From the IMG/VR virus record IMGVR_UViG_2565956721_000005: DNA of 43,002 nt, one strand, 5' to 3'. The number at the start of each line of letters is the position of its first letter. Positions within the stretch are counted from its first letter, which is position 1. Source of the stretch: a virus. Lineage: Duplodnaviria > Heunggongvirae > Uroviricota > Caudoviricetes. The notes below the pieces were generated by a model. The model was not told where the DNA came from. It worked only from the letters and a program-made list of their open reading frames with translations, and did no database searches. The position numbers were made by a program, and so were the translations under genes. Of this stretch, positions 556 to 38,413 are shown in pieces.

Positions 556-614
556 TTAACCCCTTGTAATTCATCGCCATAATTGATTTAATTCACAAAT
601 AAAACTATAACATA

Positions 615-1280
615 GTGAAACTAATGAAAAAAAACACAGATGATGGGGCTAAAATTTACACACCACTTACCCTAAAGCTTTATGACTGGTGGGTTTTGGG
701 AGTATCAAATCGGCTTGCATGGGGATGTCCTACAAAGGAACACCTTCTTCCACACTTTCTGGAACATTTAGGTAACAACCATCTGGATATTGGTGTTGGA
801 ACTGGGTTTTACCTTACTCACGTACCTGAGAGTAGTCTGATATCTTTAATGGATTTGAACGAAGCTAGCCTGAACGCGGCATCGACAAGGGCTGGGGAAT
901 CAAAAATTAAACATAAAATTAGCCATGATGTTTTTGATCCTTATCCCGCGGCGTTACATGGTCAATTTGATTCCATTTCCATGTTTTACCTTCTTCACTG
1001 CCTGCCTGGAAATATATCTACAAAAAGCTGTGTAATACGCAATGCGGCGCAGGCCTTAACTGACGATGGAACTCTATACGGAGCCACAATTCTTGGTGAC
1101 GGCGTTGTGCACAATAGCTTCGGTCAAAAACTGATGCGCATTTACAATCAGAAAGGCATCTTTTCAAACACAAAAGATTCCGAAGAAGGCTTAACACATA
1201 TACTCTCAGAGCATTTCGAGAATGTTAAAACCAAGGTTCAAGGTACTGTAGTAATGTTTTCCGCTTCAGGGAAAAAATAG
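615..1280 (+). CDS. class I SAM-dependent methyltransferase (moron inserted between tfa copies, opposite strand to tail genes)
   Basis: 221-aa ORF with motif I LDIGVGTGFY; AT-rich relative to flanks; flanked by direct repeats. Confidence 0.6.
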   Translation: MKLMKKNTDDGAKIYTPLTLKLYDWWVLGVSNRLAWGCPTKEHLLPHFLEHLGNNHLDIGVGTGFYLTHVPESSLISLMDLNEASLNAASTRAGESKIKHKISHDVFDPYPAALHGQFDSISMFYLLHCLPGNISTKSCVIRNAAQALTDDGTLYGATILGDGVVHNSFGQKLMRIYNQKGIFSNTKDSEEGLTHILSEHFENVKTKVQGTVVMFSASGKK

Positions 1281-1285
1281 CATCC

Positions 1286-1510
1286 AACCGCAGCACGTTC
1301 TTGCTTAAGACGTGCTGCGGCATAATCCCAATGATTACTCCCTGACAGGGTTCGTAGGCCACTCAATATCAGGTGCAGTTGATGTATCAACACGGTTCAG
1401 CAACACCCGATACTTTTTCCAGGCTTCCAGCAATGAGGTTTCTTCCTCCGTTGCAATTTCCAGATCTGCAGCATCCTGAAGCGGCGCAATATGCTCACTG
1501 GCTACCTGCA
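1286..1510. repeat. direct repeat copy 2 (tfa 3' end plus hairpin ccgcagcacgt...acgtgctgcgg)
   Basis: Sequence identity with 236-460; perfect inverted repeat at 1288-1320. Confidence 0.8.
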
Positions 1511-1919
1511 TCAGGTTGTTTTTTGTTTCTTCCGCCTCCCGGATCCGGAACATTTTTTCTGCTTCCGTATCCTTCACCCAGGCTGTGCCGTTCCACTTCT
1601 GAAACTCCCCTTCCGGCGATAACCAGGTAACATTTTCCGGTAACGGACCGAGTTCAGAAATAAATAACTCGTCCCCTGACGCTACGTCATAAACCGTTTT
1701 ACCCCGATGGTCTTCAACGAGATGCCACGATGCCTCATCACTGTTGAAAACAGCCACAAAGCCAGCAGGAATATCTGGTGGTGCAATATCGGTACTGTTT
1801 GCTGGCAGACCTGTATGAGGCGGAATATATGCGTCACCTTCACCAATAAATTCATTAGTGCCGGCCAGCAGATTATAAATTTTTATGGTCCGTGCTTGTT
1901 CACTCATTCTGAATGCCAT
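1335..1919 (-). CDS. tfa: tail fibre assembly protein Tfa
   Basis: 194 aa, [24 protein letters not shown]... near-identical to recalled lambda Tfa; ATG overlaps stf stop (TAATG). Confidence 0.9.
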
Positions 1920-4894
1920 TATGCAAGCCTCACAATATAGTTAAATGCGATGTTTTTGACGGTGTTTTCCGCGTTACCAGCAGCGTTAACGGTGATGGTG
2001 TGTCCATGTGAACCAATCGCAACGGAGTGCGTATGCGCACCAATACCTACAGTATGTGCATGTGCGCCAGAACTTGCTGCAGTACCAGACAGCGAGTGGG
2101 TATGAGCACCTGCTGACTGTGTCTGAATACGTTGATAATACGATCTACGGGAAGAAGTCCCCGGGCTTACTTGATACTGTGAATCCTGGACATAAGTGAA
2201 CCCACCGCCATCATAAAATGCTAACGCAGAACCGCCGCCTCCTGGCCAACGAATACCATTACCATGAGTATGATCACCGGCAGACCCCGTAGAGCCACTC
2301 AGACTGTGCGTATGCGCCCCGGTGTTATTCGTGGATTTGGTTCCGTAATCAAACGACGATGTGTTTTTCGTCCCCAAATCCGTACTGGATGCGCTGGCGC
2401 TGTGGGTGTGCGATTTAATGCCGTCCTGTTCCTGAGACAATACGGCACGACCACTGGCGGGTTTGCCCTTAATCGTCCAGCCACGCATATCAGGGATCAC
2501 GCCTGACGGATAAGCGGCTGCAAGTTTCGGGTATGCAGATTTGTCAAAAGTCTGCCCCTGCATCAGGGCATAGCCAGACGGAACGGTATCTGATGGCCAC
2601 GGGATTGGTGCGCCAGGCGGATAAAACTGCTCTGATGGCGTATAGAGTGAATAAACTGTACCGTCCGTTAACCCTTCCGGCTTATTAGCAGAATATGCTG
2701 GTGACGTATGAATCGTCACGCTGGCATTACTGGTATAATCCCATTGAATATTTACACCAGTCGCATAATTTCCGATTGCAACGTAAATATCGTAAGTATC
2801 ACCAGATGTATTGACCCAGGCAAAATTTGTAAACCCTGTCGATGTGCGCTGCCATAAAGCACCAGTAATCCCCTTCGGATTACCATTACCTGCACGCAAA
2901 ACAAGTTCAGATATACCTGCCTGTTGAGGTGACCCCACGTTAAATCCCGCACCACCAATCAACGTAATTGAAACAACAGAACTCGCCTGTGGCATGGTTA
3001 CCGTTGCTAATTTGAACCAACCAGCACCACCGCTGAATGACATTGTTGTTGAGTTAAGCGTACCAATATCTTTCGGCGTCAGTGTTATATCCGCTGAAAG
3101 CGCCTTACCATTCACCTTACGGGCAGAAGGTACCCGACCATTCGCATTATTATTAGCTGCTTTCACTGCTTTCGGTGTCGCGGCAAGCGTTTCAGATGCG
3201 CTGTTGGTTGCACTACTGAGCTGGACAATTCCTTTTTGTGCTGTCGTAGCGTCCTGAGCAGTATATTTCCCGTTAGCAAGGTCATAGGCTGCCTTTACCG
3301 ACTTTGGCGTTGCCGCCAGCATTTCAGATGTGCTGTTGGTCGCGTTGCTAAGCTGAACTATCCCTTTCTGTGCTGTCGTTGCATCCTGTGCGGTGTATTT
3401 CCCGTTAGCCAGCTCATACGCGGCCTTAACGGCTTTTGGCGTTGCCGCCAGTGACTCGGAAGTGCTGTTAGTCGCACTGCTGAGCTGTACTATCCCCTTT
3501 TTCGTCGTGCTCGCATCCTCAAGCGCCACGGCGGATGCAATATCCTCTGCCCGTTTTGCCGCTGTCTCAGCGCGCGTTGCCGCGGATTCCGCCGTACTTT
3601 TGCTCTGAGCTGCCGCCGTCGCACTGCCAGCTGCCTCTGTCGCCTTCGTGGATGCCGTCGTGGCGCTGCCCTTTGCTGCTGACGCCTGTCTGGTCGCCTC
3701 ATCTTTTGAAGCAGACGCAGATGATGCCGATGACGCCGCCGAACTGGCGGACGATGCGGCAGCCGTTTTTGAGGATTCTGCGCTGGTTTCCGACGCTTTC
3801 GCGTTCGTCTTGGATGTCTTCGCTGCGGAAGCAGACCTCGCTGCTGCGCTGGCCTGTACAGCGGCTTCGCCAGCCTTCGTTGTGGCTGTTGAAGCAGACG
3901 ATGCAGCACTTTCTGCCGATTTTCCGGCGGCGGTGGCACTGGCTGAGGCCTGCCCGGCACTTGTTGACGCGGCACTGGCAGATAATGCAGCCGCTGTTTT
4001 TGAGTCTGCCGCAGCTGAGGCGCTCTGTCCCGCTGCCGTTTCAGAAGACCTGGCGTTCGTCTCGGACGTTTTTGCCGCCTTCGCAGAATTTGCTGCCGCC
4101 GTTGCCGAGGAAGCTGCGCTGCTGGCGCTCGAGGCTGCGTTCGTTTCTGATGATTTTGCCGCCTCTTTTGAAGCCGACGCATCCCGTGCTGAAGTGGCTG
4201 CTTCTGACGCTTTCGTGGTCGCGGTGGATGCAGAAGTGGCTGCTGATTGTTGTGACGCTGCGGCATTCGTTTCTGACGTTTTCGCGGCACTGGCGCTGGT
4301 AGCTGCCGCGCTTTTTGATGACTCTGCAGCAGCAGCACTTTTTGCTGCTTCACGGGCCTTTGTCGATGCCGCTCCTGCGCTGGAAGACGCTGACTGAGCC
4401 GACGACGCGGCCTGTCCGGCTGACGTGCTGGCGGCACGTGCTGAGGCTGCAGCATCGGTTGCATGAGTTGCCGCCTCGCTGGCTGATGCACTGGCATCGC
4501 TGGCTGATTTTTTCGCGGCTGCCGTATTCTGTGCAACCGCGGAGGCGTTACGTGACACCTCTTCCACCATCTGCTCAAAGCGGCGCAGTGCCTCCGGTCG
4601 GACATCATCCTCCGTCATGGCACCGAGAAAATCATTCAGCGTACCTGGTCTGGAACCTTCATAGACGGTAATGGTCCCGGCATGTGAAGGCGGAAAACCT
4701 TCAACCAGCAGGGTGACGCTGTACTGACCATGCTCAACATCCATGCTGTAACGCCCGGCTTCATCCGGATTTTCAGAGGCCACCGTGTTCACCACCACCG
4801 TGCTGCTGGTCCGTCTGGCCTTCAGCACAATGGTGCAGTTCTGTACTGGTTTTCCTGTGCCATCTTTAAGCACGCCAGAAATTTTTACTGTCAT
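1919..4894 (-). CDS. stf: side tail fibre protein Stf
   Basis: 991 aa; N-terminus [20 protein letters not shown]..., Ala/Ser-rich central repeats and C-terminus ...[31 protein letters not shown] match recalled lambda Stf. Confidence 0.9.
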
Positions 4895-5045: not shown

Positions 5046-5645
5046 TCAGAAACGGTATCCGATACCAACAATAAATGCATCCGTTCGCCAGTCGCCACTA
5101 CCGGAACCTTCATAAGCAAGGTCAATGGTCACGGATTCGGTCGGGTTAAACTGCACGCCAGCCCCCCACGCCAGAGACGTGTTGCTGTGGCGACCGTCAT
5201 CACTTCCGGTCAGCACATCGTGCGTTTTCCCCTTGTTGTCAGTTACGCGGAGATAATCCCCGGAGAAAGTCGACACACGGCTGTAAGCCACACCCGCCAT
5301 CGAATACGCGCTGAACCATTCATTCACGCGTACAGACGGCCCCGCCATCACGCTGAACCAGCGGTTACGCACGGAATCTTCATGCCAGCGGGTATCGCTG
5401 TAGTGCGTTTTTTGCTCATCCTCAGCATTGGCATAACTGAAGGACGTAATCAGCCCCAGCGCGTCCGTAAACTCATAACGGTATTTCACGTTAATCCCGT
5501 TCAGATTATCGCTGCCGGGAGCGTTCGTACGGGCATGAAGATACCCCGCGCTCAGTGTGGACTGATGTTCAGACGCCCATGCAGGCGCACCGGATACGGA
5601 CAGACAGATGGCTGCGGACAAAATGACTGCACAAACTTTACGCAT
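5046..5645 (-). CDS. lom: outer membrane protein Lom (Ail/Lom family)
   Basis: 199 aa with signal peptide; near-identical to recalled lambda Lom (…GINVKYRYEFTD…GSGSGDWRTD…). Confidence 0.9.
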   Translation of the reverse strand: MRKVCAVILSAAICLSVSGAPAWASEHQSTLSAGYLHARTNAPGSDNLNGINVKYRYEFTDALGLITSFSYANAEDEQKTHYSDTRWHEDSVRNRWFSVMAGPSVRVNEWFSAYSMAGVAYSRVSTFSGDYLRVTDNKGKTHDVLTGSDDGRHSNTSLAWGAGVQFNPTESVTIDLAYEGSGSGDWRTDAFIVGIGYRF

Positions 5646-5712: not shown

Positions 5713-7524
5713 TCAGCTGATACTGATGCCTGCGGTGGCTTTCTTCATCACCACAACCAGCAAATCGCTGATACTTGCTGTGGGATACCAGTTATTCACC
5801 AGCCATGCTGACACCGAAAACTCCAGCGTCATGTGGCCGCGACCAGCTGGCATATCAATAACACCACTGTAAATCAGCGTATTATCCAGCGCGGTACGGT
5901 TATAAATTTCAGCACCGTTTTTCCGTACTATCAGGCGGCATGACGAATAAATATCGTTATTCTCCCGCTCATGTTTAGCGCCGCTGAATGCCACCGCCGG
6001 AATAACAATCTGCCGGTCAAACGGCTGATCGTCATAAACCCTGACGGTGATGGTCCCTGATGGCCACCGTTCCGGTGCACGGGAGTCCCGGGGGAAAGCT
6101 TTGCCCACTGTTTTAACGAGATCGCCTTCAATCTGGTTGGCGGACAATTTTCCCAGAACCCGACAGTTCTCGTTAATCGTGACGTTGTTGAGCGTCCCGG
6201 AGTTCGCATTCACGTTACCGCTGATATCGGCATTTTTCGCCGTCAGCCGCCCGTCCGGTGTCAGGGAAAATGCCGGAGGATTACCGCCGCTGGTAATGGT
6301 CGGAGCCGTCAGGCGTTTCAGGAACACGTCGTTCATGAATATCTGATCGCCCTGACCAACAAACATCGGCTTTGTGTTGCCATTCGCAGGATTAATCATC
6401 GCAATCCGGTCAGCAGCCAGAAGCACCTGACTCTGCATACCTGCTGGCGTATTCTCAATACCGGCTCCGATACCCGCAATATAAAGGCGTCCGTCCTTCA
6501 TCTGCTGCAGTTTCACGGCCCACATGCTGTTCAGGTTATTATTTGTATCAACCTGAACTTTCTGTATCTGCTGGATTGCCGCACTCTGGTCTTCCAGTTT
6601 TTTATTGACGGTCTGCGTGATTTCATTGCTGACATTCGTAATGGACGTCCTGATTTCAGCCAGGTCCGGCGCAAGCTGACCGTTATCAATCTGCGTCCAC
6701 AACTCCTGGGCCAGATGTGTTTTCCCGATTTCTCCTTTGAAAAAATCCAGGTAACCTTCCGCATCATCGCTCGCCCGACCGACAGCCTCCACGAATGCCG
6801 ATTTGCCAACGGTGTTCACACTGCGAACGTAAAAATAATAATCATGGCCCGGTTTGATATTGATACTGGCGGCTATCCAGTACAGCGCCGTACCAAGATA
6901 GCGGGCTGTGGTTTCAACCTGCCTGATATCGGTAATCCGCTTTTCCGAGAACCAGAACTCAAACTGTACCGTCGGGTCATAAACAGCAAGATGCGGCGTG
7001 GCGGTTATCTGAAAATAGCCCGGCGTCAGCTCAATCCTCGACGGTGCTGCCGGTGCGGCAATCCGGAACGATACCGACGCCGGATCGCCCTGCTGCCCCC
7101 GGGCATTTACCGCCCGGACTGTCAGCCTGTAGTTCCCCAGCGCCAGTTGCGTGAAGCGGTATGTGGTTTCCGTCGTCCGGGCCGTGCTGACCAGTCGCTC
7201 ACTGCCGTCGTCCGCTGTTACGGTCAGACGGAGCAGGAAGCTCACGCCCTTCACCACCTTCGGTGTGTCCCATCGCGCCAGCACCTGATATTCCCCGCTG
7301 TCTGCAGTGACTTCGGCGGTCAGGTGCTGCACTGCTGGCGGCGTGACACCATTCACCGTGCCGCTCTGGTCACCGTCAAAGTGCGCCCCGTTATCCACGA
7401 TGGCTTCTTTCTCCGGTACATGCTGCACGGCGGTGATGGCATACGTGCCGTCATCGTTCTCACGGATACTCACGCAGCGGAACAGGCGCTGGCGCAGGTT
7501 TGTTAATGGAAAGGAAGCCGCCAA
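5713..7524 (-). pseudogene. J: host specificity protein J, C-terminal about 600 aa only (5' half deleted)
   Basis: Frame matches lambda J from ...[28 protein letters not shown]... to the C-terminus; no native start; fused to the 3' end of L. Confidence 0.85.
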
Positions 7525-8185
7525 AGTTGCCGACGTTATTGCGAAACTTACAGCCGCTCAGGCATTTGCTGCATTTATCCTTCGTGATATCGGACGTCGG
7601 CTGGTCATATTCATCCGCGACTGCCGGACCGTGATAACCGCACTCATCACCGCGATAGGTCCAGGTGCAGGTGTTGGCCAGCATGATACGCCCCGGAAAA
7701 ACAGCGCCATCCGTTTCCGTCGGCGTGGACAGTACAAAGGAGGCACTCACCGCGCTCAGTTCGCTGCACTGCTCGATGCGCCAGCGGCTGATCACCTCCT
7801 GCTCCGGATCGGCGTCTCTGTTTCCGTTGACGAAGTTCACCGCATCCAGAAAACGGGCGTAAACCTTACGCCGGACCACCGTTCCGCCGACCAGACTCTG
7901 CATATCTTCCACCATACCGGTGACCATGCCGTACAGGTTAGAGACTGCCAGCGTGGGCCGCGTACTGGTGCCTTTGCCATTCAGTTCAAAACCGCTCCCC
8001 TGAATGGGATACGCCTGATACTGCCTCCCCTGCCAGGTGACCGGCTCACCTTTTTCGTTCTGCTCATTACAGAAAAAATAACGTTCTCCACCGACCTCTG
8101 TCAGATCGATTTCCCAGAGCACCACGCTGGCCGACTGCTCCGCACGGGTGCATTCATTCAGTGTTTCCTGCCGGATATCCTGCAT
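7460..8185 (-). CDS. L: tail tip assembly protein L with altered C-terminus (reads 12 codons into J-derived DNA)
   Basis: [38 protein letters not shown]... matches lambda L up to ...GGFLSINK, then diverges at the deletion junction. Confidence 0.85.
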
Positions 8186-8514
8186 CAGTTCACCACCTGT
8201 TTAAACTCTGCGCTGAACCCAACACGCAACATACTGACCTGCGACGACCATTTTGCGCAGGTCACCTTTATCTGCCTGTAACCATAAGGCGGCGTCCACA
8301 GAAAGGCCTTCCAGCCCCCGTGCTCAGCCAGAAACGACTCCAGCGCCGTGGCCTCCTCACGGGAGACAGACAGCGTCACGCTGTACGTTTTCAGGTCAGC
8401 GTTCAGCCCGGCAGGCGCACGCTGGGAATAGCCATCACCAAAGCGCACCTCCCTGACGGAAGGAGCCGATGTCACATCCATCCCGGGTTTCACTTTCCAG
8501 CGGAAGGTTTTCAT
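8185..8514 (-). CDS. M: tail protein M
   Basis: 109 aa MKTFRWKVKPGMDV... matches lambda M; ATGA overlap with L. Confidence 0.9.
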   Translation of the reverse strand: MKTFRWKVKPGMDVTSAPSVREVRFGDGYSQRAPAGLNADLKTYSVTLSVSREEATALESFLAEHGGWKAFLWTPPYGYRQIKVTCAKWSSQVSMLRVGFSAEFKQVVN

Positions 8515-11084
8515 CGTCCACCTCCGGAGAACAGTCCACCATCACGCATCTGTGTCTGAATTTCATCACGGGCACCCTTGCGGGCCATGTCATACACCGC
8601 CTTCAGAGCAGCCGGACCTATCTGCCCGTTCGTGCCGTCGTTGTTAATCACCACATGGTTATTCTGCTCAAACGTCCCGGACGCCTGCGACCGGCTGTCA
8701 GCCAGACTGCCCGGTGTACCGACATAACCACCGGTGGCATAGCCGCGCATCAGCCGATAGAGATTCCCCACGCCAATCCGGCTGGTTGCCTCCTTTGTGA
8801 AGACAAATTCACCACGGTGAACAATCCCCGCTGGCTCATATTTGCCGCCGGTTCCCGTAAATCCTCCGGTTGCAAAATGGAATTTCGCCGCAGCGGCCTG
8901 AATGGCTGTACCGCCTGACGCGGATGCGCCGCCACCAACAGCCCCGCCAATGGCGCTGCCGATACTCCCGACAATCCCCACCATTGCCTGCTTAAGCAGA
9001 ATTTCTGTCATCATGGACAGCACGGAACGGGTGAATCCCCGCCAGTTCTGTTCGCTGCCGGTCAGCATCGCCGCCATATTCTGTGCAATACCGTCAAAGG
9101 TCTGCGTGGCCACACTTTTAACCTGCGAAAAACTGTCCGTCGCACTTTCCGCCCACTCTCCCCAGCCGGACTTCATCCCGGCCATCCAGCTTCCACGAAG
9201 CTGCTCCTCCGCAGACCAGGTGTTCTTCAGTGCCGATGTGGCCTTCGCCAGCGCAGCCGGATTATCACCGTACACCTCACGAAGGCGCTGCTCTTCCGAC
9301 TCCCGCTGCGCCTGACGGTCGGTGAGGCCGCGGGCTTTTGCGCTGATTGCCGCCTGCTTCGCGCTTTGCTGCTGTTCAAACCGCGCCGCCTGCTGTGCCA
9401 GCTCATTCAGCCGCTTCTGGTGTTCAATCTTGTCTCCCAGCTCAGCCAGCTGGCGTTTGTACTCCAGCGTCTCTTTCTCATGAGCCAGCAGGGATTTTTC
9501 CTGCTCAGATAACTGCCGTTTCGTGGCGGCCTCTTTCAGGACCACATACTGACTTTCCGCTTCCCATAAATCCCGGCGCTGCTGGCTGATTTTCTCATTC
9601 ACACCGCTGTGTTTTTCCAGCGTCCTGAGCTCGGTTTCAAGCGCCAGCAGGGCTGCATGCGCCCGGTCTTCCTGGCGCTCACCGGCAGACACCTTCACAC
9701 CTGACGGCTTTTTCAGCGTCGATTCATAATCCTTTTTTGCCGACGCCATCAGCGTGTTGTAATCCGCCTGCAGGATTTTTCCGTCTTTCAGGGCCTTATT
9801 CAGCTCTTTCTGACGGGCGGTATATTTATCCAGCGGCGTCTGCAGGCGCTCATACGCCTTCTGCGCCTCTCCGGTATACTTCAGCTGTGACGACTCACGC
9901 TCAGCCCTGTCCCTTGCCGCCAGTTCACCGGCTTTTTCCATATCCGACTGCAGCGTGGCCGCTGCCAGACCCAGACGGGCATTTTCCCGGTCATCCCATG
10001 CCCCCTGAAGGTTCGCACGAAAAGAGGAGGTCTTTCCCCGGCGCTGGCTCCGGCTCTGGTACCACTGCCATTTTTTATCCGCCTCATCAAATGCCTTCTG
10101 CGCACTGGCGAGCATATCCGCTGAGGATTCCGGACGACCGATATCCAGAATGGCATCCCACATCGATTTGAATGCCTTCCCTGTTTTATCCGCCCAGGTC
10201 TCCAGTGTTCCCATGTTTTCTTTCAGGCGACGGGTCTGCTCATCAAAGCCTTTCGTGGCGATATCGTTCGCCGCCTGCAATGCCCCGGCCTCGTCTCCGG
10301 AACGCTGCAGCTGTGCAACATACGCAATCTGCTCTGCCGTCACGTTACGGAACTGGCGCGCCATCGCCATCAGTCCCGACGTCGGGTCAGTGGTCAGCTT
10401 CCCGAAGGCTTCAGCGACTTTATCCACCTCCACACCGGATGCAGACGCAAAACGCGCGACACTCTGGTTGATGGCATCAAACTGTTCACCACCACGCACA
10501 CCGGCATTCACCAGGGCTGCCAGTGACTCTCTCGCCTGGTTAAACGTCAGCCCTGCTGCCTGCCCGGCTCTTGAGAGCGTCAGCATACGATCGGCAGTCA
10601 GTCCGGCCTGATTGCCGGAAAGGACCAGCGTTTTATTAAATTCTGAAAGCGTGGCGTCGCCCTGGTACCAGGCGTACGCCAGCGCACCTGTCGCCACCGC
10701 CAGCGAGGTGACCCCGACCATCGGCAGGGTGATCGCACCGGCAAGCCCCCTGAACATGGGGATCATCCCGCCGAAGGAGTCCTTCACCTGACCGCCCTGT
10801 TGCAGCAGGATCAACCAGGGATTCTGACCACCGGCAAGCTGCGTGGCGATATCCGTAAACTGTGCGGGCAGGGTTCGCATGGCCGCTTTATACTGCCCGA
10901 CGGAAATCCCGGCTTTTTGTGCAGCCAGCGCCTGGCGGCTCAGGCCCTGTTCAACAGCACTGGCGGTTTTTCTGGCGTCGGTATCCAGACCTGAAAAATG
11001 ACGCCTTACCCGGCTCATCTGCTCATCGAAACGGACAGCATCCAGACTCAGGTCAATAACAAGATCACCAACCGGCTGGGACAT
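8511..11084 (-). CDS. H: tail tape measure protein H
   Basis: 857 aa; N- and C-termini match recalled lambda H (MxxPVGDLVIDLSLDA... ...QMRDGGLFSGGGR). Confidence 0.9.
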   Translation of the reverse strand: MSQPVGDLVIDLSLDAVRFDEQMSRVRRHFSGLDTDARKTASAVEQGLSRQALAAQKAGISVGQYKAAMRTLPAQFTDIATQLAGGQNPWLILLQQGGQVKDSFGGMIPMFRGLAGAITLPMVGVTSLAVATGALAYAWYQGDATLSEFNKTLVLSGNQAGLTADRMLTLSRAGQAAGLTFNQARESLAALVNAGVRGGEQFDAINQSVARFASASGVEVDKVAEAFGKLTTDPTSGLMAMARQFRNVTAEQIAYVAQLQRSGDEAGALQAANDIATKGFDEQTRRLKENMGTLETWADKTGKAFKSMWDAILDIGRPESSADMLASAQKAFDEADKKWQWYQSRSQRRGKTSSFRANLQGAWDDRENARLGLAAATLQSDMEKAGELAARDRAERESSQLKYTGEAQKAYERLQTPLDKYTARQKELNKALKDGKILQADYNTLMASAKKDYESTLKKPSGVKVSAGERQEDRAHAALLALETELRTLEKHSGVNEKISQQRRDLWEAESQYVVLKEAATKRQLSEQEKSLLAHEKETLEYKRQLAELGDKIEHQKRLNELAQQAARFEQQQSAKQAAISAKARGLTDRQAQRESEEQRLREVYGDNPAALAKATSALKNTWSAEEQLRGSWMAGMKSGWGEWAESATDSFSQVKSVATQTFDGIAQNMAAMLTGSEQNWRGFTRSVLSMMTEILLKQAMVGIVGSIGSAIGGAVGGGASASGGTAIQAAAAKFHFATGGFTGTGGKYEPAGIVHRGEFVFTKEATSRIGVGNLYRLMRGYATGGYVGTPGSLADSRSQASGTFEQNNHVVINNDGTNGQIGPAALKAVYDMARKGARDEIQTQMRDGGLFSGGGR

Positions 11085-12709: not shown

Positions 12710-13105
12710 TCACATCTCGTATGTAATGGAATAAGTCAGATCTGCAGAACTCCATAACGCCATATCGTCATCACGACGATACTCATAGCCCTGCGTAACC
12801 ATCGTGGTAATCAGTCCTGCCAGTGCCGGGATCGCGGTCATCGCCGGGTAAATCCGGCTTTCCATCCACTGATCAAGCTCTGAATCCGGTACCTGTGCCG
12901 GTAAAAACACCTCAATATGCAGCGTGGCCCGCCAGGTATCTGCATCCAGCTCTTCACCGGTATACTCTGCATCCGTCAGATAAACCGCGATCGCAGGAAA
13001 ATCCTCTTCGTCAAAAACAACGGGGCGACCATCAAACAGCGTCGCCCCGTGTTCATGCTGCTCGAGTGCATCCAGCACTGCGGCACGAATGTCAGTGTGT
13101 TTCAT
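12710..13105 (-). CDS. U: tail terminator protein U
   Basis: 131 aa, lambda U position and length. Confidence 0.8.
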
Positions 13106-13635
13106 CGTTTTATTGCAATCCTCAGTTGTTGTTTCAGCGCGTATGCCAGTTCTTTAGGCAGGCGTTCACGCCGGATACGGTCAACATTCTCATCAAATGC
13201 CTGTTTCAGTGGGGCCGCCATCGGGATTTTCACCACATCAATGGGGTAACGGTTTTTCCCGGCCACACGCTGCATGACATGCCAGCGACCATTTTTTAAT
13301 CTCTGAATAAATGCCCGCTGATACCGATGCTGACCGGCTTTAAGTATGCTGTTCGGGCGACGCCCCAGCATCCTGATCCCCAGCTTAATCACAGGGAGAT
13401 CACCGCGGTTAACGATAATTCTGGCATTCGGATTTCTGACCGTCGCCCGTTTCAGTCTGGACCGTTCCTTAACCAGTTTCCGGCGAACCTTTGTCTCCCG
13501 GGCAACCTGTGATGAAGACTGATTAATCGCCGTTGTGGCCACGCGGTTAATGGCCATTGCTGAAGCCGCCGGAATGGCGTTTTTACGAACCCGGCTCAGA
13601 TTGTCAATCGCCTGATCAAGCCCTTTTATCGCCAT
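13102..13635 (-). CDS. Z: tail completion protein Z
   Basis: 177 aa MAIKGLDQAIDNLSRV... similar to lambda Z. Confidence 0.8.
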   Translation of the reverse strand: MAIKGLDQAIDNLSRVRKNAIPAASAMAINRVATTAINQSSSQVARETKVRRKLVKERSRLKRATVRNPNARIIVNRGDLPVIKLGIRMLGRRPNSILKAGQHRYQRAFIQRLKNGRWHVMQRVAGKNRYPIDVVKIPMAAPLKQAFDENVDRIRRERLPKELAYALKQQLRIAIKR

Positions 13636-13650
13636 AATTTCACCCTGCGT

Positions 13651-14004
13651 TTATCGTCGCCGGTTAACTGCGGGTGGTTGACCACGGTTGAGCCAGAGAT
13701 AACAGCTGCCCCCGTCATCCGGAGAAACACGATCCACCCAGAATATCTCACCATTAATGGTCAGCGTGTCACCACGCCGCACGGCACGAACCGTATCCGT
13801 CCGCACAAATAATGACGGGCTGCTTCCTTCAATACGGACCCCGCCACCGGCAAACCCCAGCGACTCCGGATCATCAAAAACCCCCTGAACTTCGCTGCCA
13901 CACTGTGCCCCCGAGGTGAACTGCGCACAGAGCCCCATCACTTCAACGATCGTACTGTCTACCCCGGCGAGGGCAGCATCAAAGGCATTCTGAAAATCAC
14001 GCAT
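13651..14004 (-). CDS. FII: head-tail joining protein FII
   Basis: 117 aa; ...GVFDDPE...GVR.EGSSPSLFVRTD.VR..RRGDTLTI....FWVDRVSPDDGGSC.LWL.RG.PPAVNRRR matches lambda FII. Confidence 0.9.
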   Translation of the reverse strand: MRDFQNAFDAALAGVDSTIVEVMGLCAQFTSGAQCGSEVQGVFDDPESLGFAGGGVRIEGSSPSLFVRTDTVRAVRRGDTLTINGEIFWVDRVSPDDGGSCYLWLNRGQPPAVNRRR

Positions 14005-14380
14005 ATTCAGCCGTTCCGTGCTGTATCATGGCCGTTGCCAGTGATGATGGCACCAGAACACGCATACCCCGTAACGCCAGCTCAACGGGACGACCTGTCT
14101 CCGGGCAATACCCCATTACTTGCAGGCACTTCCGTACCCGGACGGCTTTAACATCATCCGGAGCATCCGTGTTGTTCAACTGCTCACCATCGTCTGTGTG
14201 ATTTTGATCAGCCCCGCTCTCATCAGAGTGCATAATGCCCTCCGGGGAAACAGCAAGCTCCTCTTCCCACTCAGACACACGTTGAGCAATATCCGCAGCA
14301 CTCCCCGACATATCCGCCTCGCGCCCCAGCAGGTCAGCCAGTTGACGAAGACGATTCAGATTTTCTTCTTTTGTTGCCAT
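13997..14380 (-). CDS. FI: head assembly/DNA packaging protein FI (start placed at MATKEEN with AGGAGG RBS)
   Basis: Position between E and FII; strong RBS CACAGGAGGCTGAG before ATG at 14380; acidic protein as for FI. Confidence 0.65.
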   Translation of the reverse strand: MATKEENLNRLRQLADLLGREADMSGSAADIAQRVSEWEEELAVSPEGIMHSDESGADQNHTDDGEQLNNTDAPDDVKAVRVRKCLQVMGYCPETGRPVELALRGMRVLVPSSLATAMIQHGTAEYA

Positions 14381-14431
14381 CTCAGCCTCCTGTGAAAAAA
14401 GACACGGGGGCATTTCGCCCCCGCTCACGGA

Positions 14432-15460
14432 TTATTTCACCTGTACCACCACAAACTCATCCGGATCCGGCAGCACCATCAGCGGAGCGGACTGCGTCAT
14501 GGTGAATTCACAGGACGGATCGCCCACGGTCAGCCAGTGTTTCGGGTAACGGGAAGAAGCCACCACTCCTTCAGACAACGCCTGTGCATCCTTAATGGCA
14601 CCATAGCAACGAATCCCCTCTGCCGCCGTATTCCCCAACACCAGCATGCCCTCCGGCAGATAACGTTTTTCGGTACCGTCCTCTGCCACATAAGACGTTT
14701 TCGCCACCACAATGGCCAGATCGCCGTAATACCCCTTGAAGGACACCACTGCGCCCAGATCTTTCACTGCCGTTTCGAGTTGAGAATTTGAACCGCGACG
14801 GGTATCCAGTTTTTCGCGGAACAGCTTAAAACCATTCAGAAGACGCCAGACGGTACCGTCCATAATGGCAATATTCACAAGACCGCTGGCCAGGTCGCAG
14901 TAGAGGTCAATATCATGTGTAGGATCGAACGTGTCACGATCCTGTTTTGACCACTCCTTACCACTACCCTGAGTGATGTTATTCTTCGTCGACCTGCCAA
15001 AATCGACCTCAATTTTCTCGAACTGGTCTCCTTCCATGGTGTATTTGCCATACAGCACGGCATTCACCGCCTGCATTTCTTCCACCTGGACAATGGCGTG
15101 CTCTTCCTGTTTGAGGTTATCGGTAATGATACGCAGACGACGGTAGGCCGGGTCGTTCAGCTGAGCCGGATCTTCACCAGGAAGGCGCTCAACCGCCTGC
15201 TGGTAATTAAATTCGTGTTTCGGCTTGACGTAGCCCGGACGTAACACGCGGGTTTCACCACCGCGATGGCGAAGCACTTTTCCTTCAACGATCGGGGAGA
15301 CATAGGCCGCCACCGGCGTTTTTCCGGTAATTTTGTCCAGCATCACCTCTTCGGTGTGGAAATTCACCGTACGGCGGAAAAACAGCTCCAGAAACAGCGC
15401 ACGGAATTTCACTTTTTGTTCGGTATAACCGAGTAACTGGCGGGTCGTAAACAATCCCAT
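14432..15460 (-). CDS. E: major capsid protein E
   Basis: 342 aa; ...YVSPIV.G.V.R.RGG......PGYVKPKHE... ...KLDTRRGSNS.LETAVKDLG..VS.KG.YGD.AIVV... matches lambda E. Confidence 0.9.
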   Translation of the reverse strand: MGLFTTRQLLGYTEQKVKFRALFLELFFRRTVNFHTEEVMLDKITGKTPVAAYVSPIVEGKVLRHRGGETRVLRPGYVKPKHEFNYQQAVERLPGEDPAQLNDPAYRRLRIITDNLKQEEHAIVQVEEMQAVNAVLYGKYTMEGDQFEKIEVDFGRSTKNNITQGSGKEWSKQDRDTFDPTHDIDLYCDLASGLVNIAIMDGTVWRLLNGFKLFREKLDTRRGSNSQLETAVKDLGAVVSFKGYYGDLAIVVAKTSYVAEDGTEKRYLPEGMLVLGNTAAEGIRCYGAIKDAQALSEGVVASSRYPKHWLTVGDPSCEFTMTQSAPLMVLPDPDEFVVVQVK

Positions 15461-15517
15461 AAATCAGTTCCTTTCATTCAGAAATCAGTCAGGTCACCAT
15501 GGTGGCCTGATAACGTG

Positions 15518-15865
15518 TTACGGCAGAGCCGCGTGACTCAGGGCTGTGCCGGCAAAGGCATTTGCCTTTTTGTGTTCATCCACACTGTCAGGCCAGCGGA
15601 TTGCCTCCGTCGCAAAGGTCCCCGACTTGTAATAGGTCAGCACCGTCTCTGTGCCTTCAAGCGGCAGTACCAGTATGCCAACCGCACTACCGGCTTTCTG
15701 TCCATCCCAGACCACCAGTTTCCCGGTGGCTTCATCCAGCATCAGGGGCGTCAGAGCCGGTGTTGCAGAAGAAATCCCGCTGCTGCCTGTGGCGGTATGA
15801 GCCGGATCATTACCGGCAAAAATACGTACTTCCGCACGCTGTTCAGTGATGGTTTTCGTCACCAT
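15518..15865 (-). CDS. D: head decoration protein D
   Basis: 115 aa; ...DPAHTAT...PLMLD...KLV.WDG...AVGIL... matches lambda D. Confidence 0.85.
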   Translation of the reverse strand: MVTKTITEQRAEVRIFAGNDPAHTATGSSGISSATPALTPLMLDEATGKLVVWDGQKAGSAVGILVLPLEGTETVLTYYKSGTFATEAIRWPDSVDEHKKANAFAGTALSHAALP

Positions 15866-15901
15866 TTTGTTAAAACCTCATATTGATGGTCAGCACTGAC
15901 T

Positions 15902-17407
15902 TCATGGCATGGCCATGAGCATTTTCACGTCCGCATCACCGTCTGCTGACGTCTGTGACACGCCACCCCGCACCGCTGCCGGTGAATGATTCGCCATGAA
16001 ATGTTCAAACAGGGCGGTTGTGGATGCAGAGACCGGTTCGGCCTTACCTGATCCCGCAGCCAGCACAGCCCGGGCGTTCTCCACGGTCATTCCCGGGCAG
16101 GCCGCCAGTTTTTCAGCCTGCGCTTCTGCCCCTTTTGCCTCATCCAGGGCCATGATCTGATCACGAAGCGAGGGCCCGGCATCCGCCAGTGGTGCAGCCG
16201 CCAGGATCGGGCGGGCTTTTTCCACCGTCATCTCCGGCATCGCCGCCAGCGTTGCCGCCAGTTGTTCACGACCGTTCGCTTCTTCACACGCCATAATGCG
16301 ATCGGCTTCACTCTGCGCGGATGCCACCGGCTGCTGCGGTGCCGCCGCGGCCAGAATCGCCCGGGCCTGTTCAACGCTCATGCCCTGTTGCCCTGCCAGC
16401 ATCGTGGCAAGCTGTTCACGTCCTTTCGCTTCCTGGCATGTCAGGATCCCCATCACTCGCTGGTTCTCCTGCACGGCGGCTTCCGTTGCAGTTAATTGCG
16501 GCATAGTGCCTCCTCTGACATTACTGTTCAGCGCCGTGGCCATCACACTGATGGCATCCGACGCATTGATTAATTCATCCGCCAGCCCGGCCTCAATGCC
16601 GGACTGACCTTCAAAAACGGCAGCCTCTGTTCCCGTGACGGCATCAACAGACAGACCGGTATACATCGCCACTTTTTCGGCAAACATCCGGCGCGCCGCA
16701 TCAATCCGCTGCTGCATGTCCTGGCGAACCTCTGCCGGCAACGCTTCAAACTGATTGCCATCCACCTTGTGCGCCCCTGAGTAAATCAGCGTGATATCCA
16801 CACCGGCCTGCGCCAGATGACCGGCATAGCTGACATGGCTCATCATCACGCCAATGGAACCGATACGGGATGTCTGGGTAACCAGCCGTCGGGAGCAGGC
16901 CGACGCCAGCAGCATGGCCGCAGAACAGGCCGTGTCATTACACAGTGCCCAGACCGGCTTCTGCTGCCGGAGGCGGTAAATCATGTCAGCGCAGTCAAAC
17001 GCGCCGGCGGCCTGCCCGCCCGGACTGTCAATGTCCAGCAGTATGCCCCGCACCTGGCTATCTGCCATTGCCTGCTGAAGACAGGCGACAATGCCGTCAT
17101 AGCCAGTCATTCCGGAAAATGGCCGCATCCCCCCCAGCCGGTGCACCAGCGTGCCGGTCACCGGCAGTACCGCAATACCGTTCACCACCCGGTAAACACG
17201 GGCCGGTCGTTTACCTCCGGCCATGTACTCGTCCGTTTCAGCCAGCATCCCGGGAGCATCAAGCTGTACCTGCTGTTGCGGTACCGAAAGACTTGCTGCC
17301 CCCATCTCGCGCCCCAGCGCGCAAAAGAAAACCCGCGCATAGGCGGGCTCCAGAAGCAGCGGTTCATTGAATGCTGCTGCAATAATGTGTGAAAGATTAC
17401 GTCTCAC
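15902..17407 (-). CDS. C: prohead protease C (S49/ClpP-like) with nested scaffold Nu3 region
   Basis: 501 aa; lambda-C-like N-terminal protease region; C-terminal triplicated QEAKGREQLA...MTVE.AR.ILAA repeat. Confidence 0.85.
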   Translation of the reverse strand: MRRNLSHIIAAAFNEPLLLEPAYARVFFCALGREMGAASLSVPQQQVQLDAPGMLAETDEYMAGGKRPARVYRVVNGIAVLPVTGTLVHRLGGMRPFSGMTGYDGIVACLQQAMADSQVRGILLDIDSPGGQAAGAFDCADMIYRLRQQKPVWALCNDTACSAAMLLASACSRRLVTQTSRIGSIGVMMSHVSYAGHLAQAGVDITLIYSGAHKVDGNQFEALPAEVRQDMQQRIDAARRMFAEKVAMYTGLSVDAVTGTEAAVFEGQSGIEAGLADELINASDAISVMATALNSNVRGGTMPQLTATEAAVQENQRVMGILTCQEAKGREQLATMLAGQQGMSVEQARAILAAAAPQQPVASAQSEADRIMACEEANGREQLAATLAAMPEMTVEKARPILAAAPLADAGPSLRDQIMALDEAKGAEAQAEKLAACPGMTVENARAVLAAGSGKAEPVSASTTALFEHFMANHSPAAVRGGVSQTSADGDADVKMLMAMP

Positions 17408-18989
17408 GTGGTGTTGTCTCCTCTTCCGGCCTGCGACTCTCCGCTATCTGCTGCTGATACGCCTGCGCTATCCACACCGGACGTGAGAGTCCGGCTTTTT
17501 CCCGCTCTGCAGATTCCCTGACCTGCTGGCGGAAAATGTCCTGATAATCCTCGCCCATCAGCGCCAGCTCTTTCTCATACGTGCTCAGTCCGGCCTCAAT
17601 GCGCATCACTGATTCCTGAACCTCCTTGAGCCCGTCAATGGCCATTCTTCCGGCTCCAATCCACTCAGCCCGTGACCAGGCTGATCGCGCCTGATAAAAA
17701 TCAAACCGTGCCCGTGGCGGACGAATAATCCCCCGAAGAAGTGCCTCTTCCAGCCAGCAGGAAAACATCTGCGTGGCCAGCCGGGACGCAATAAATTTTC
17801 GCCGCCCCATAAAATAGCGCCACGACTCATTGGCGGATGCGCGGGCACTTGAGTAACTGACCTTCGAGTAATCACGGGACAACTGTTCGTAGGAAACGCC
17901 AAGACCGGCGGCGATATACCGCAGCAGCGCCTGTTCAAGCGCCGAAAATCCATTGTCTGAATCCTGCGCGGTCTGAAGTTTCAGATCATCACCGGGGAAA
18001 AGGTGCGGAATTTTGACACCGCCCAGCGTCACGCTATTCGTGTCATACCAGGTGGAGAACTTATCCAGAATATTAATAAGCGGATTATCCTTCTGCCCCT
18101 GCGGCGCACCGGCGATATATTCAAAGGCCTTTTCGGTATCAAGGTCACTTTCAATCGTCGCTGCATACATCGCCTTCACTATGGCCGACTGAAGCTGTGT
18201 TGCCTGCAGGGAATCCAGCATCTTCAGCCGTTCCATAACGCTGTAAAACTGATTGGCTCCACGGGTCTGCCCGTCCTCCACCGGCTCGAAAATATGCAGC
18301 ATGGCCGGACGCCCGGTGGGAAGTTCACGCGGGATCCGTTCCCATCGTCCACTCCCGGAGCGAGGAAAATCATCCTCACAGATATGGTACGCAACGGCAC
18401 GGCCATATCGATCAACCTCCACACCGGCCCGCAGAAAACGGTTCCCGATACCGTGTCCTGGCGTGTCCACCCGTTTCGGACTCACGGCTTTAAAACGCGT
18501 ACGAAACAGTTGCGTACTCTCCGTATCCCAGACCGGCTGCACAAAGATTTCGCCGTTAAACGCATGAACGCCCACACCTTCACGGATAAATTCCGTAAAC
18601 GTGCGTTTCCCTTCCACGTCGATCTCACCAAACATCCCTTCTGCGTATTCTGACCAGGCCGCCTCCACCTCATCGACAAAACTTTTTGCCGCGGTCTCCC
18701 GCATCCCCAGCCAGCGCCAGTTCGGACGGTAGCTAATCAGAAACATATGCCCGACAATGTGATCCTTATGCAGGGCCACCGCATTGGCCGCTATTCCGTT
18801 ATTGCGCACCAGATCATCTGCACGGGCATTCCCCAGACGCAACGCGGGCAGCAGGGCCGCATCGGCACTCTGCGAGGGTGGCAACCACTCTGCCATTTGC
18901 CCGCCAAATCCTGCACCGCCACCGGTGTAGCTGAGGCTCTCCCGAAGCGGAACGCCGTTCACATCAATCAGGACAGGCGTTCGTTTCAT
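17397..18989 (-). CDS. B: portal protein B
   Basis: 530 aa, lambda B position and length; overlaps C start. Confidence 0.85.
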   Translation of the reverse strand: MKRTPVLIDVNGVPLRESLSYTGGGAGFGGQMAEWLPPSQSADAALLPALRLGNARADDLVRNNGIAANAVALHKDHIVGHMFLISYRPNWRWLGMRETAAKSFVDEVEAAWSEYAEGMFGEIDVEGKRTFTEFIREGVGVHAFNGEIFVQPVWDTESTQLFRTRFKAVSPKRVDTPGHGIGNRFLRAGVEVDRYGRAVAYHICEDDFPRSGSGRWERIPRELPTGRPAMLHIFEPVEDGQTRGANQFYSVMERLKMLDSLQATQLQSAIVKAMYAATIESDLDTEKAFEYIAGAPQGQKDNPLINILDKFSTWYDTNSVTLGGVKIPHLFPGDDLKLQTAQDSDNGFSALEQALLRYIAAGLGVSYEQLSRDYSKVSYSSARASANESWRYFMGRRKFIASRLATQMFSCWLEEALLRGIIRPPRARFDFYQARSAWSRAEWIGAGRMAIDGLKEVQESVMRIEAGLSTYEKELALMGEDYQDIFRQQVRESAEREKAGLSRPVWIAQAYQQQIAESRRPEEETTPRET

Positions 18990-26695: not shown

Positions 26696-26772
26696 TGGCG
26701 CGTTGTACTGGATTCGAACCAGTGACCGATTGCTTAGAAGGCAATTGCTCTGTCCGGCTGAGCTAACAACGC
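26696..26772 (-). tRNA. argO: tRNA-Arg, anticodon UCU (reads AGA/AGG); argO-like
   Basis: Cloverleaf read by hand: acceptor GCGTTGT, anticodon loop CTTCTAA, T-arm ACTGGTTCGAATCCAGT, 3' GCCA. Confidence 0.85.
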
Positions 26773-26785
26773 AGGATACAGATAA

Positions 26786-26862
26786 TGGACCGCCTTCGGG
26801 GACCCGAACTCCGCGCAACCAGCTTCGAAGGCTGGCGCTCTTTCCTGATGAGCTAATGGCGG
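26786..26862 (-). tRNA. argN: tRNA-Arg-like, anticodon UCG; non-canonical T-loop (TTCGGGT) and one acceptor-stem mismatch
   Basis: Cloverleaf read by hand: anticodon stem CCAGC/GCTGG, loop CTTCGAA, D-loop with GG, 3' ...GGTCCA. Confidence 0.6.
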
Positions 26863-26869
26863 TATGTGA

Positions 26870-26945
26870 TGGTGGCCCTTGCTGGATTTGAACCAGCGAC
26901 CTGGCGATTATGAGTCGCTCGCTCTCACCACTGAGCTAAAGGGCC
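26870..26945 (-). tRNA. ileZ: tRNA-Ile2, anticodon CAU (lysidine type, reads AUA); ileZ/ileX-like
   Basis: GGCCCTTTAGCTCAGTGGTGAGAGC...CTCATAA...GGTTCAAATCCAGCAAGGGCCACCA; near-identical to recalled E. coli ileX. Confidence 0.85.
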
Positions 26946-29821: not shown

Positions 29822-30868
29822 TTACCCAAGCACGCCAGTTGCAAAGGCGTGATCAAGAAAACGAAAAATTAAATCAACCTGAGAACCATGCTTTTCTTCG
29901 AACGCCAGAGGATCCGCATGAAGCTCGTTGTGATGCTCCCGACACAGCGGTAGCGTGAAAATATCGTGAGATTTTGTCCCCATTCCGCCCTGACCATGAC
30001 CAATCAGGTGATGGGGATCGTCGGCTGGCTTACCACAACACGCACACGGCTGTGTCTTCACCCAGCGTGTGTATTTCTCGTTAACCCAGCGGCGACGTTT
30101 AGGTCGTTTCATGAAAGATTCCGGAGACTCAGGATCAACGGCAATGCTGACCACCGTCTCTTCCTGTGGCGGGTTTTGCTGGTGGGCGTGAGGCAGCGGC
30201 GCAAGATTTTTTGTGCGCTGCTTCAGTATGCTGGTGGCGGTCTGCTCTCCCGGTACGATGTCGCTTTCACGGTACATTGAGCGGATTTTTTCCGCACGCA
30301 ACCCCAGCGAACGACGTAATACCGCTTCCGGTAGCGCGTCCGCCACCTGATTGCGGACCGCCCACCAGGATAATTCAGCCAGAGATAATTCACGCTCCTG
30401 CGTACCGCTTATTGCGTGACCGATGACGTCAATCATCCATGCTGACAGGTTTTGATGAGCAAGTTGCTCGAGTGATTCGGATGTCTGGTCACGCAGCTGG
30501 TTGTCGCAGTGCCAGCACAACACCATTGCGCCGGTACCATAACGGTGAATGACGGTTTCGCTGTGATGATAATCGCCGTGTGGCCACTGGCAGGATTTAA
30601 TATGGCGCAACAGCCAGTCAGACAATGCACCAGCACCACCAGCAGCACGAATCACCCGTGCGTTACTGAAAAACGGCAGCAATGTTTTGTCTTCCACCAG
30701 CGGCTGGCGAACGGCAGGAACGACCCCGGACGGCAGATTACGCATGCTTTTCGGTTCCGGCTCCACCAATACCCGGGTATTGTGGAATACCGGCATGGAT
30801 TCACGGCCCGGCTTAACGATCACCAGCCCGAGTTCCGGTACCAGAACAGGTCGAAGTAATACCCGCAC
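29822..30868 (-). CDS. DUF968-family protein (YdfU-like, HNH-like C-terminus)
   Basis: 348 aa; C-terminal CACCGKPADDPHHLIGHGQGGMGTKSHDIFTLPLCREHHNELHA. Confidence 0.7.
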   Translation of the reverse strand: MRVLLRPVLVPELGLVIVKPGRESMPVFHNTRVLVEPEPKSMRNLPSGVVPAVRQPLVEDKTLLPFFSNARVIRAAGGAGALSDWLLRHIKSCQWPHGDYHHSETVIHRYGTGAMVLCWHCDNQLRDQTSESLEQLAHQNLSAWMIDVIGHAISGTQERELSLAELSWWAVRNQVADALPEAVLRRSLGLRAEKIRSMYRESDIVPGEQTATSILKQRTKNLAPLPHAHQQNPPQEETVVSIAVDPESPESFMKRPKRRRWVNEKYTRWVKTQPCACCGKPADDPHHLIGHGQGGMGTKSHDIFTLPLCREHHNELHADPLAFEEKHGSQVDLIFRFLDHAFATGVLG

Positions 30869-36607: not shown

Positions 36608-37246
36608 ATGAACAAGCAAACAATATCTGAACGCATAACCCAACGTATGCATGCGCTAAACCTGAAAGGCAAAGACCTTGTCAATGCCACTGGCGCATCA
36701 AAAGGCTCCGTAAGTCAATGGATGAACGGTGGAGGAGCGCCGTCCTCGCGTTACATAAGTTCACTGGCAAAAATATTGAAAGTAAACGAAAATTGGCTTC
36801 TTAATGGAGGAGAGTTAAATACAGGTGATTCGCTTGATCTATCTTTACCGCCGATAAAAACGGTTCCGCTACTATCACTTCAGCAGGCAGCAAGCTGGAG
36901 TGATTATATGAAAAATTCCTCAATAACCTCTTGTGTGCAGCTTGTCGGAGAAATCCCGGCCAATACCTTTGCAGTTGTTCTAGAGAGTGACAGTATGTCA
37001 ACATCTGGTGGGGGAGTTTCCATCCCAAATGGTTCAACAGTTTTTGTTGATCCCGATCGAACCGTACAACCAGGAAATATTGTCCTTGCCTTACCCAAAG
37101 GGACCACAACACCTGTCATTCGTAAACTGGAGATAGAAGGGCCGGATATTCTTTTAGTCCCCACGAATCCTCGCTACCCTTCAATTATGCTGGATGATCT
37201 ATCTTGCATATTGGGCGTATGCTTTAAAATTCAACAAAATATTTAA
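36608..37246 (+). CDS. CI-like repressor (N-terminal HTH, C-terminal S24/LexA-like peptidase domain)
   Basis: 212 aa; HTH ...LKGKDLVNATGASKGSVSQWMNG...; C-terminal ...ESDSM... region typical of S24 autopeptidases. Confidence 0.8.
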   Translation: MNKQTISERITQRMHALNLKGKDLVNATGASKGSVSQWMNGGGAPSSRYISSLAKILKVNENWLLNGGELNTGDSLDLSLPPIKTVPLLSLQQAASWSDYMKNSSITSCVQLVGEIPANTFAVVLESDSMSTSGGGVSIPNGSTVFVDPDRTVQPGNIVLALPKGTTTPVIRKLEIEGPDILLVPTNPRYPSIMLDDLSCILGVCFKIQQNI

Positions 37247-37538: not shown

Positions 37539-37694
37539 ATGGATACTATCGATCTTGGCAACAACGAATCTCTGGTGTACGGCGTGTTTCCCAACCAGGA
37601 CGGCACATTCACCGCGATGACGTATACCAAAAGCAAAACGTTTAAAACCGAAAATGGTGCCCGTCGCTGGCTGAAAAGAAACTCAGGTGAGTGA
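37539..37694 (+). CDS. ydfA: YdfA-like small protein
   Basis: 51 aa MDTIDLGNNESLVYGVFPNQDGTFTAMTYTKSKTFKTENGARRWLKRNSGE; GAGG RBS. Confidence 0.7.
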   Translation: MDTIDLGNNESLVYGVFPNQDGTFTAMTYTKSKTFKTENGARRWLKRNSGE

Positions 37695-37695
37695 T

Positions 37696-37824
37696 ATGGA
37701 TTTCGACACAATCATGGAAAAGGCTTACGAAGAATACTTCGAAGGCCTTGCCGAAGGCGAAGAAGCTCTCAGCTTCAGTGAGTTTAAACAGGCGCTTTCC
37801 AGCTCGGCAAAATCTAACGGCTGA
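37696..37824 (+). CDS. ydfB: YdfB-like small protein (42 aa)
   Basis: MDFDTIMEKAYEEYFEGLAEGEEALSFSEFKQALSSSAKSNG; below the ORF-track size cutoff. Confidence 0.6.
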   Translation: MDFDTIMEKAYEEYFEGLAEGEEALSFSEFKQALSSSAKSNG

Positions 37825-37853
37825 TAAGCGAAGCAGCACCGCGAGGAATCAGT

Positions 37854-38072
37854 ATGCAGAAACGAGAACCCGTCATCATCGCGCCAGACTATACCGATGA
37901 TGAACTTTATGAGTGGATGCGCCAGAAAATTAATGCAGCGCAGGATCTGAAATGGGCCAATGAAGCCAGGGCTAAGCAGGCTGAAAATCTGTCCGCTCTG
38001 GAGCAGGATATCACCAATCTGGAAAAAGCAGCGGCATTAAGCATTGCCAGAATGATTACATACCCACGTTAA
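37854..38072 (+). CDS. ydfC: YdfC-like protein
   Basis: 72 aa; position in Qin-like operon order. Confidence 0.65.
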   Translation: MQKREPVIIAPDYTDDELYEWMRQKINAAQDLKWANEARAKQAENLSALEQDITNLEKAAALSIARMITYPR

Positions 38073-38413
38073 TAGCTAACCAACGAAGCTAAGGTTGGTA
38101 ATTAAGGAGTTCTCCACGGGTGAGGTGGAGTGCGTGCGCCGGACACGGGTGAGCATCCGGCACTGACAGTTTACTGAAAGGATATTTCCCTGAAAAGTCA
38201 GACCATAACGCGAAAGCGCACGGCGAGGTAGCTGGTTCACAGATAGCCTGTCGTTAAATTTTCGTCGACCGTGCGCTTCCGGTTGTGGCAATCCGCGAAA
38301 TGGCGCGGCGGTAAGTATGGCGGGGTTATTCCTTCCACCGTTGAGGACACCGGGTTGTCAGGTTGACCATACGCTTAAGTGACAACCCCGCTGCAACGCC
38401 CTCTGTTATCAAT

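Follow-up and report, generated by a model that had tools for sequence, protein, structure and literature searches.

Gene layout around the L–J junction

The window, by which we mean the whole stretch of 43,002 nucleotides that was analysed, comes from a tailed-virus record (IMGVR_UViG_2565956721_000005) and extends from int at its 3' end to past tfa at its 5' end. In megablast searches of complete E. coli genomes it matched a lambdoid prophage of the MS8345/UTI89 type with 99.6–99.8% identity over its whole 43-kb length, and from int through tfa it is collinear with the prophage of MS8345, the closest intact one (Table 1). The minus strand carries all genes around the L–J junction. In order and orientation the retained genes follow the L-K-I-J-lom-stf-tfa region of lambda (NC_001416, 13429-22557), and the Pfam families of the retained tail genes are common to both elements; a difference from lambda is that stf is uninterrupted in the window.

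Table 1. Features of the window and of the segment that it lacks relative to the MS8345 prophage (window positions unless another numbering is named)
Feature	Position	Strand	Remarks
H (tape measure gene)	11084..8511	-	intact, 100% identical to MS8345
M	8514..8185	-	upstream tail gene, intact, 100% identical to MS8345
L' (truncated L)	8185..7460	-	minor tail protein L (tail-tip hub HDI and Fe-S domain); 241 aa, 229 native and 12 foreign codons, then stop
12 novel codons of L'	7498..7463	-	J sequence read in the L frame; TGA stop at 7462..7460
Deletion junction	7498/7497	-	7498, last L base; 7497, first base of J codon 566
J' (3' part of J)	7497..5713	-	tail tip/central fibre gene J, 3' 1785 nt; 594 aa, residues 566-1159 of 1159
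lom	5645..5046	-	Ail/Lom outer-membrane protein; full length, 100% identical to MS8345 gene
stf	4894..1919	-	side tail fibre, 991 aa; full length versus MS8345
tfa	1919..1335	-	tail fibre assembly protein, 194 aa; full length versus MS8345
Direct repeat	266-462 and 1315-1511		197 nt, 89% identity; duplicated tfa 3' end
Methyltransferase gene	612-1280	+	class I SAM-dependent methyltransferase (phrog_2132)
Major capsid gene	14432-15460	-	342 aa, same length as in MS8345
Three tRNA genes	26696-26945	-	Arg(tct), Arg(tcg), CAT-anticodon tRNA
DUF968 gene	29822-30868	-	348 aa, same length as in MS8345
Repressor-like gene	36908-37246	+	'LexA family protein', just 112 aa
Qin-like region	37539-39017		ydfA, ydfB, ydfC, dicB, ydfD
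Closest intact prophage	NZ_CP025401.1, 1325193-1371665		E. coli MS8345
Segment missing from the window	NZ_CP025401.1, 1360698-1364168		3471 bp
Lost: L 3' end			last 11 nt of L (last 3 codons)
Lost: K			247 aa; Prok-JAB and NlpC/P60 tail assembly protein; whole gene
Lost: I			PF06805, tail-tip plug; whole gene
Lost: 112-aa ORF	9259-9597 in MS8345 extract numbering, where 7498-10968 = NZ_CP025401.1 1360698-1364168		lipoprotein-like; between I and J in MS8345; whole ORF
Lost: J codons 1-565			hub domains, HDII to most of HDIV

An earlier note, made from the letters of the window, had described an L protein that follows its lambda counterpart as far as ...GGFLSINK and then reads 12 unrelated codons. 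The alignments bear this out: residues 1–229 of the truncated protein, here called L', are identical to lambda L at 223 of 229 positions (97%) up to exactly that motif, and to MS8345 L at all 229. Since native L has 232 codons, of which 229 are kept, only the last three residues, LSQ, are gone; lambda L ends in INKLSQ, in keeping with the note, whereas L' carries the 12 foreign residues in place of LSQ. The protein remains recognizable as a gpL homologue, with a Pfam match to PF05100 that spans profile positions 1–205 of 206 (E=6e-100), and it keeps all four Fe-S ligands (Cys173/182/205/212), the cysteines that are named for gpL in the structural study of the lambda tail (PMC10721106).

The next frame downstream, J', opens with the codons CTG CGC CAG at 7497 and is offset by +1 relative to L', in agreement with the note's reading of about 600 C-terminal residues of J in a different frame. 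Its DNA is 100% identical to codons 566–1159 of MS8345 J, and its product shares 70% identity with residues 563–1131 of lambda gpJ, from which it diverges in the C-terminal receptor-binding part. J' retains two Ig/FNIII domains, the central fibre and the C-terminal receptor-binding domain, and the Pfam families Ig_J, Ig_J_second, Phage_Tail_Tip and Ig_GpJ_C all score above their curated cut-offs; FNIII-A_GpJ (86–207) and Phage-tail_3 (330–498) are found in intact J only. The retention of the J receptor-binding end, detected as Ig_GpJ_C, and of full-length lom, stf and tfa had likewise been anticipated.

The same note took the J fragment to be without a start codon, which is correct for the native start but leaves aside an in-frame GTG (7473) and an in-frame TTG (7524). 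Gene callers in public assemblies begin J' at the GTG, which overlaps the L' stop by 14 nt, and so arrive at a 586-aa protein. No Shine–Dalgarno motif precedes either the GTG or the TTG, and a search for an internal promoter of J' gave three promoter-like sites against 2.4 expected in shuffled sequence, which is no excess. Given the missing native start and the lack of both kinds of signal, expression of J' seems unlikely. A programmed frameshift that would fuse L' to J' was also considered and rejected: the +1 shift would have to occur at AAA-CCT-G, where inspection showed no known slippery signal.

At the 5' end of the window, the direct repeat formed by the duplicated 3' end of tfa brackets the gene for a SAM-dependent methyltransferase, which looks like a moron inserted along with the duplication, and a DUF4376 pseudogene fragment stands at the window start. 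The tRNA genes lie downstream of the Q antiterminator and DNA methyltransferase genes; the one with the CAT anticodon is assigned to Met by ARAGORN and to Ile by RefSeq.

A 3471-bp deletion joins L to the middle of J

Compared base by base, the MS8345 prophage carries exactly 3471 bp that are missing from the window; correspondingly, the first 20 kb of the window equals 23,471 bp in UTI89/MS8345-type genomes, in two pieces. Against lambda, window positions 8614–7492 align with 13000–14122 and positions 7497–6696 with 17200–18002, so that 3083 bp (lambda 14117–17199) are absent in lambda coordinates. The loss from the actual parent is larger because the parent has an additional ORF of 112 aa between I and J. 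The earlier estimate of about 3 kb accordingly holds in lambda coordinates and falls short of the 3471 bp lost from the true parent. Although 3471 is divisible by three, no in-frame fusion results, since L and J are read in different frames in the parent.

The L side ends after codon 229 plus one nucleotide and is followed directly by the first base of a J codon. In the alignments with both lambda and MS8345 the two parts meet flush: no bases have been inserted, and perfect microhomology, which had been proposed as a point to check, amounts to 0 bp. The break between 7498 and 7497 falls where the earlier note had placed it (near 7497–7500), and its central claim, that a single deletion fuses L to mid-J with K, I and the 5' part of J gone, is upheld by both comparisons; the lambda order L-K-I-J that it had given is that of NC_001416. 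A tblastn search of the entire window (E<=1e-3) found no match to K, I, J residues 1–565 or the 112-aa ORF. Of the lambda-type tail-tip module L-K-I-J, a gpL homologue and the distal part of gpJ are present, and gpK, gpI and full-length gpJ are absent. At the level of sequence the element is a defective prophage: 3471 bp have been lost relative to an intact relative of 99.6–99.8% identity, and the remainder from int to tfa is present.

The 112-aa ORF has a lipoprotein-type signal peptide (MNKTILFCTIIALTGC), belongs to phrog_914 (function unknown), gives no Pfam match and does not occur in lambda; it is possibly a moron that was lost along with the deletion.

Two ways of generating the join find no support. 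A microhomology-mediated deletion is at odds with the 0 bp of perfect overlap in the comparison with the true parent; the only candidate is an imperfect T.CGC match (four of six bases) beside the junction, which is roughly at chance level (P about 0.04). An insertion-sequence or site-specific mechanism is likewise unsupported, there being neither inserted bases nor repeats at the junction.

Carriers of the allele and state of the remaining prophage

A 33-mer spanning the junction was used as a probe in exact scans of genome, viral and metagenome contig collections, and it had no exact match in three large contig collections; megablast of the junction region likewise returned no contiguous match among 5,426 complete RefSeq E. 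coli genomes. The allele is rare, as its absence from these genomes and collections indicates, and it was located only via an exact-protein index. There, the exact 241-aa L' occurs on at least 24 contigs; a cluster look-up placed it on 23, the longest of 5.0 Mb, and its accessions include ESP35550.1 from E. coli HVH 178 (4-3189163). The 586-aa J' protein is recorded on 17 contigs. Ten carrier contigs, each from a separate public assembly and one from a Logan read-set assembly, were compared with the window: all ten have the identical 33-mer junction and an identical J' sequence, with 0–51 substitutions elsewhere. K and I are restored in none of these alternative assemblies. With the same junction on ten contigs and L' on 23, the lesion is a chromosomal allele that is stably inherited.

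These data also decide whether the junction could have been created by an assembler that misjoined the near-identical L and J genes of several lambdoid prophages. Multicopy, near-identical genes are a classic source of misassembly, and an E. coli genome holds a median of three to four copies of these tail genes. Against this, the flush join offers no shared sequence by which an assembler could have bridged the two genes, and the same junction recurs in ten contigs from assemblies of different origin and years, among them multi-Mb scaffolds and the independent Logan assembly, which differ from one another by 0–51 substitutions elsewhere. The identical junction in separate assemblies, together with the flush join, leads us to reject an artefact, to which we assign next to no probability.

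In one of the carriers, GCA_018862985.1, lom is called in two parts, of 43 aa and 193 aa, on account of a 111-bp overlap or duplication inside the gene (2595–2733 of the extract); either an assembly error or further decay may be responsible.

Apart from the deletion, the prophage is well preserved. Of 54 annotated MS8345 genes checked, 49 are covered end to end in the window, and the five affected are K, I and the 112-aa ORF, which are absent, and L and J, which are truncated. M, H, T, V, U, Z, FII, FI, J' and lom are 100% identical to their MS8345 counterparts, the genes for integration, regulation, lysis, head and packaging (int and xis included) are intact, and the gene comparison with MS8345 revealed no further inactivating mutation; ydfC is one codon shorter. 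With every other gene of the intact relative at full length, flanks that are 100% identical to that same relative and a J' that is identical among carriers, the deletion is recent, and it probably arose once.

Two genes stand out from this near-identity. The major capsid gene has 42 mismatches and 2 gaps relative to MS8345, while its neighbours FI and D are 100% identical; its ORF is intact, and the patch looks like a localized mosaic acquired through recombination with another prophage. The DUF968 gene, also with an intact ORF, has 15 mismatches and 2 gaps amid near-identical surroundings. The Qin-like region adjoins the short repressor-like gene; as both also occur in the intact relatives, the inducibility of those relatives is itself uncertain.

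Origin, consequence and relation to other defective prophages

We consider it very likely that the locus records a recent, single deletion between L and J in a lambda-like prophage of the UTI89/MS8345 type, inherited in a few isolates, and that the prophage, newly defective, would make no tails of its own. The data show the deletion itself, its endpoints and its inheritance in a small number of E. coli isolates, HVH 178 among them: the 3471 bp are gone, and the 3' end of L runs straight into J codon 566 at its first base. For the single joining event behind this we infer an illegitimate, homology-independent mechanism, with end joining or a replication error as its source.

The expected consequence follows from the genes lost. 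K, I and J are classically required for lambda tail assembly. In the cryo-EM structure of the lambda tail, the hub domains of gpJ form the last tail ring together with gpL, while gpI plugs the lumen, and the hub domains HDII to HDIV of gpJ extend to about residue 578 (PMC10721106). By this measure the deletion has taken away essentially all of the J hub, together with its partner I. Nucleation of the lambda tail tip depends on K, I and the J hub, which makes it probable that the prophage cannot build its own tail, as the note had expected; excision, replication, cell lysis and the filling of heads would presumably still be possible.

Whether such a prophage is still transmitted is a separate matter. 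Lambda heads and tails are assembled separately and joined afterwards, and the head, packaging, lysis, int and xis genes of the prophage are all intact, so that co-resident lambdoid prophages might provide tails, or K, I and J themselves, in trans, or might restore the missing genes by recombination, which would render the deletion real but harmless. An intact L-K-I-J stretch is the norm in E. coli genomes, being present in 4167 of the 5426 complete genomes at a median of three places per genome; close relatives have several such loci, MS8345 itself at four places, and isolated phages among the matches listed have a longer, undeleted stretch across the junction region. Defective lambdoid prophages of O157 are, moreover, packaged and transferred through prophage–prophage interactions (PMC2669165). 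These two circumstances, the number of L-K-I-J places per genome and the transferability of defective prophages, make rescue plausible, but the fit of a foreign tail to this head is uncertain, and we regard harmlessness as possible rather than likely. Such rescue would in any case bear on what the deletion entails and not on what the feature is.

A different origin would be a crossover between two prophages of one chromosome, which would join the L of one to the J of the other and whose reciprocal product might survive elsewhere. There is good precedent for recombination between prophages, as in O157 Sakai (PMC2669165), and the capsid and DUF968 genes show that mosaic patches occur elsewhere in the window. 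Yet one and the same MS8345 prophage matches the sequence on either side of the junction at 100% identity, in collinear order and orientation, and the junction offers no homology that would support a homologous exchange, which makes this origin very unlikely. Even less probable, in our estimation, is that the deletion was selected because J' was co-opted as a 586-aa protein, such as a receptor-binding decoy or an exclusion factor. No stop interrupts the frame over 594 codons, its sequence does not differ among carriers, and the overlap between the GTG and the L' stop makes a coupled re-initiation conceivable; but the GTG and the TTG are without upstream Shine–Dalgarno motifs, promoter-like sites are at their level in shuffled sequence, a trimeric fibre without a hub has no known role, and the identity among carriers points to recency and not to selection, given that the J of the intact relative has the same sequence in this part. 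A related proposal, in which J' with lom, stf and tfa is maintained as a reservoir of host-range modules for capture by phages, or in which the 586-aa product is a receptor-binding protein that interferes with superinfection, is highly doubtful; if the reservoir did exist, infecting or co-resident lambdoid phages would acquire host-range modules from it by recombination.

Under the preferred reading, a recent and single deletion, the locus is an instance of ordinary prophage decay by internal deletion, a well-known process that is seen here at its first step. Its practical weight lies mainly in annotation: the database records for a 241-aa 'minor tail protein L' and a 586-aa 'host specificity protein' are two stumps of one deletion rather than true variants, and the prophage ought to be classed as defective in tail formation; beyond that, it is of little importance. 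It does offer a clean and datable example of first-step decay, with a single lesion and the rest intact. The deletion could also serve to trace the lineage of its E. coli carriers, and the prophage provides a natural test case for whether co-resident lambdoid prophages rescue a tail-less neighbour.

A separate deletion in the K-I-J region is present in the UCPROB-001/002 prophage (NZ_CM142927.1), a different element that is 92–93% identical: there, K is cut after about 100 codons, J lacks about 439 codons and about 2.8 kb have been lost; what remains is an intact L and, beside it, a J fragment that lacks the N-terminus. At its junction in UCPROB-002 (about 4556–4575 of the extract) the two alignments overlap by 8 bp. 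As this deletion has other endpoints and lies in another prophage, the K-I-J region has been deleted more than once. Among the prophages of K-12, Rac, Qin, DLP12 and e14 are cryptic or defective lambdoid elements. In these relics, as in the Sp prophages of O157 Sakai (PMC2669165), morphogenesis genes have been lost through internal deletions, and distal tail-fibre, lom-like and accessory genes remain, which is the pattern of the window as well. The likeness to Qin includes a similar dicB/ydfABCD region; in contrast to the K-12 relics, however, the window has one lesion only and stands at a much earlier stage of decay.
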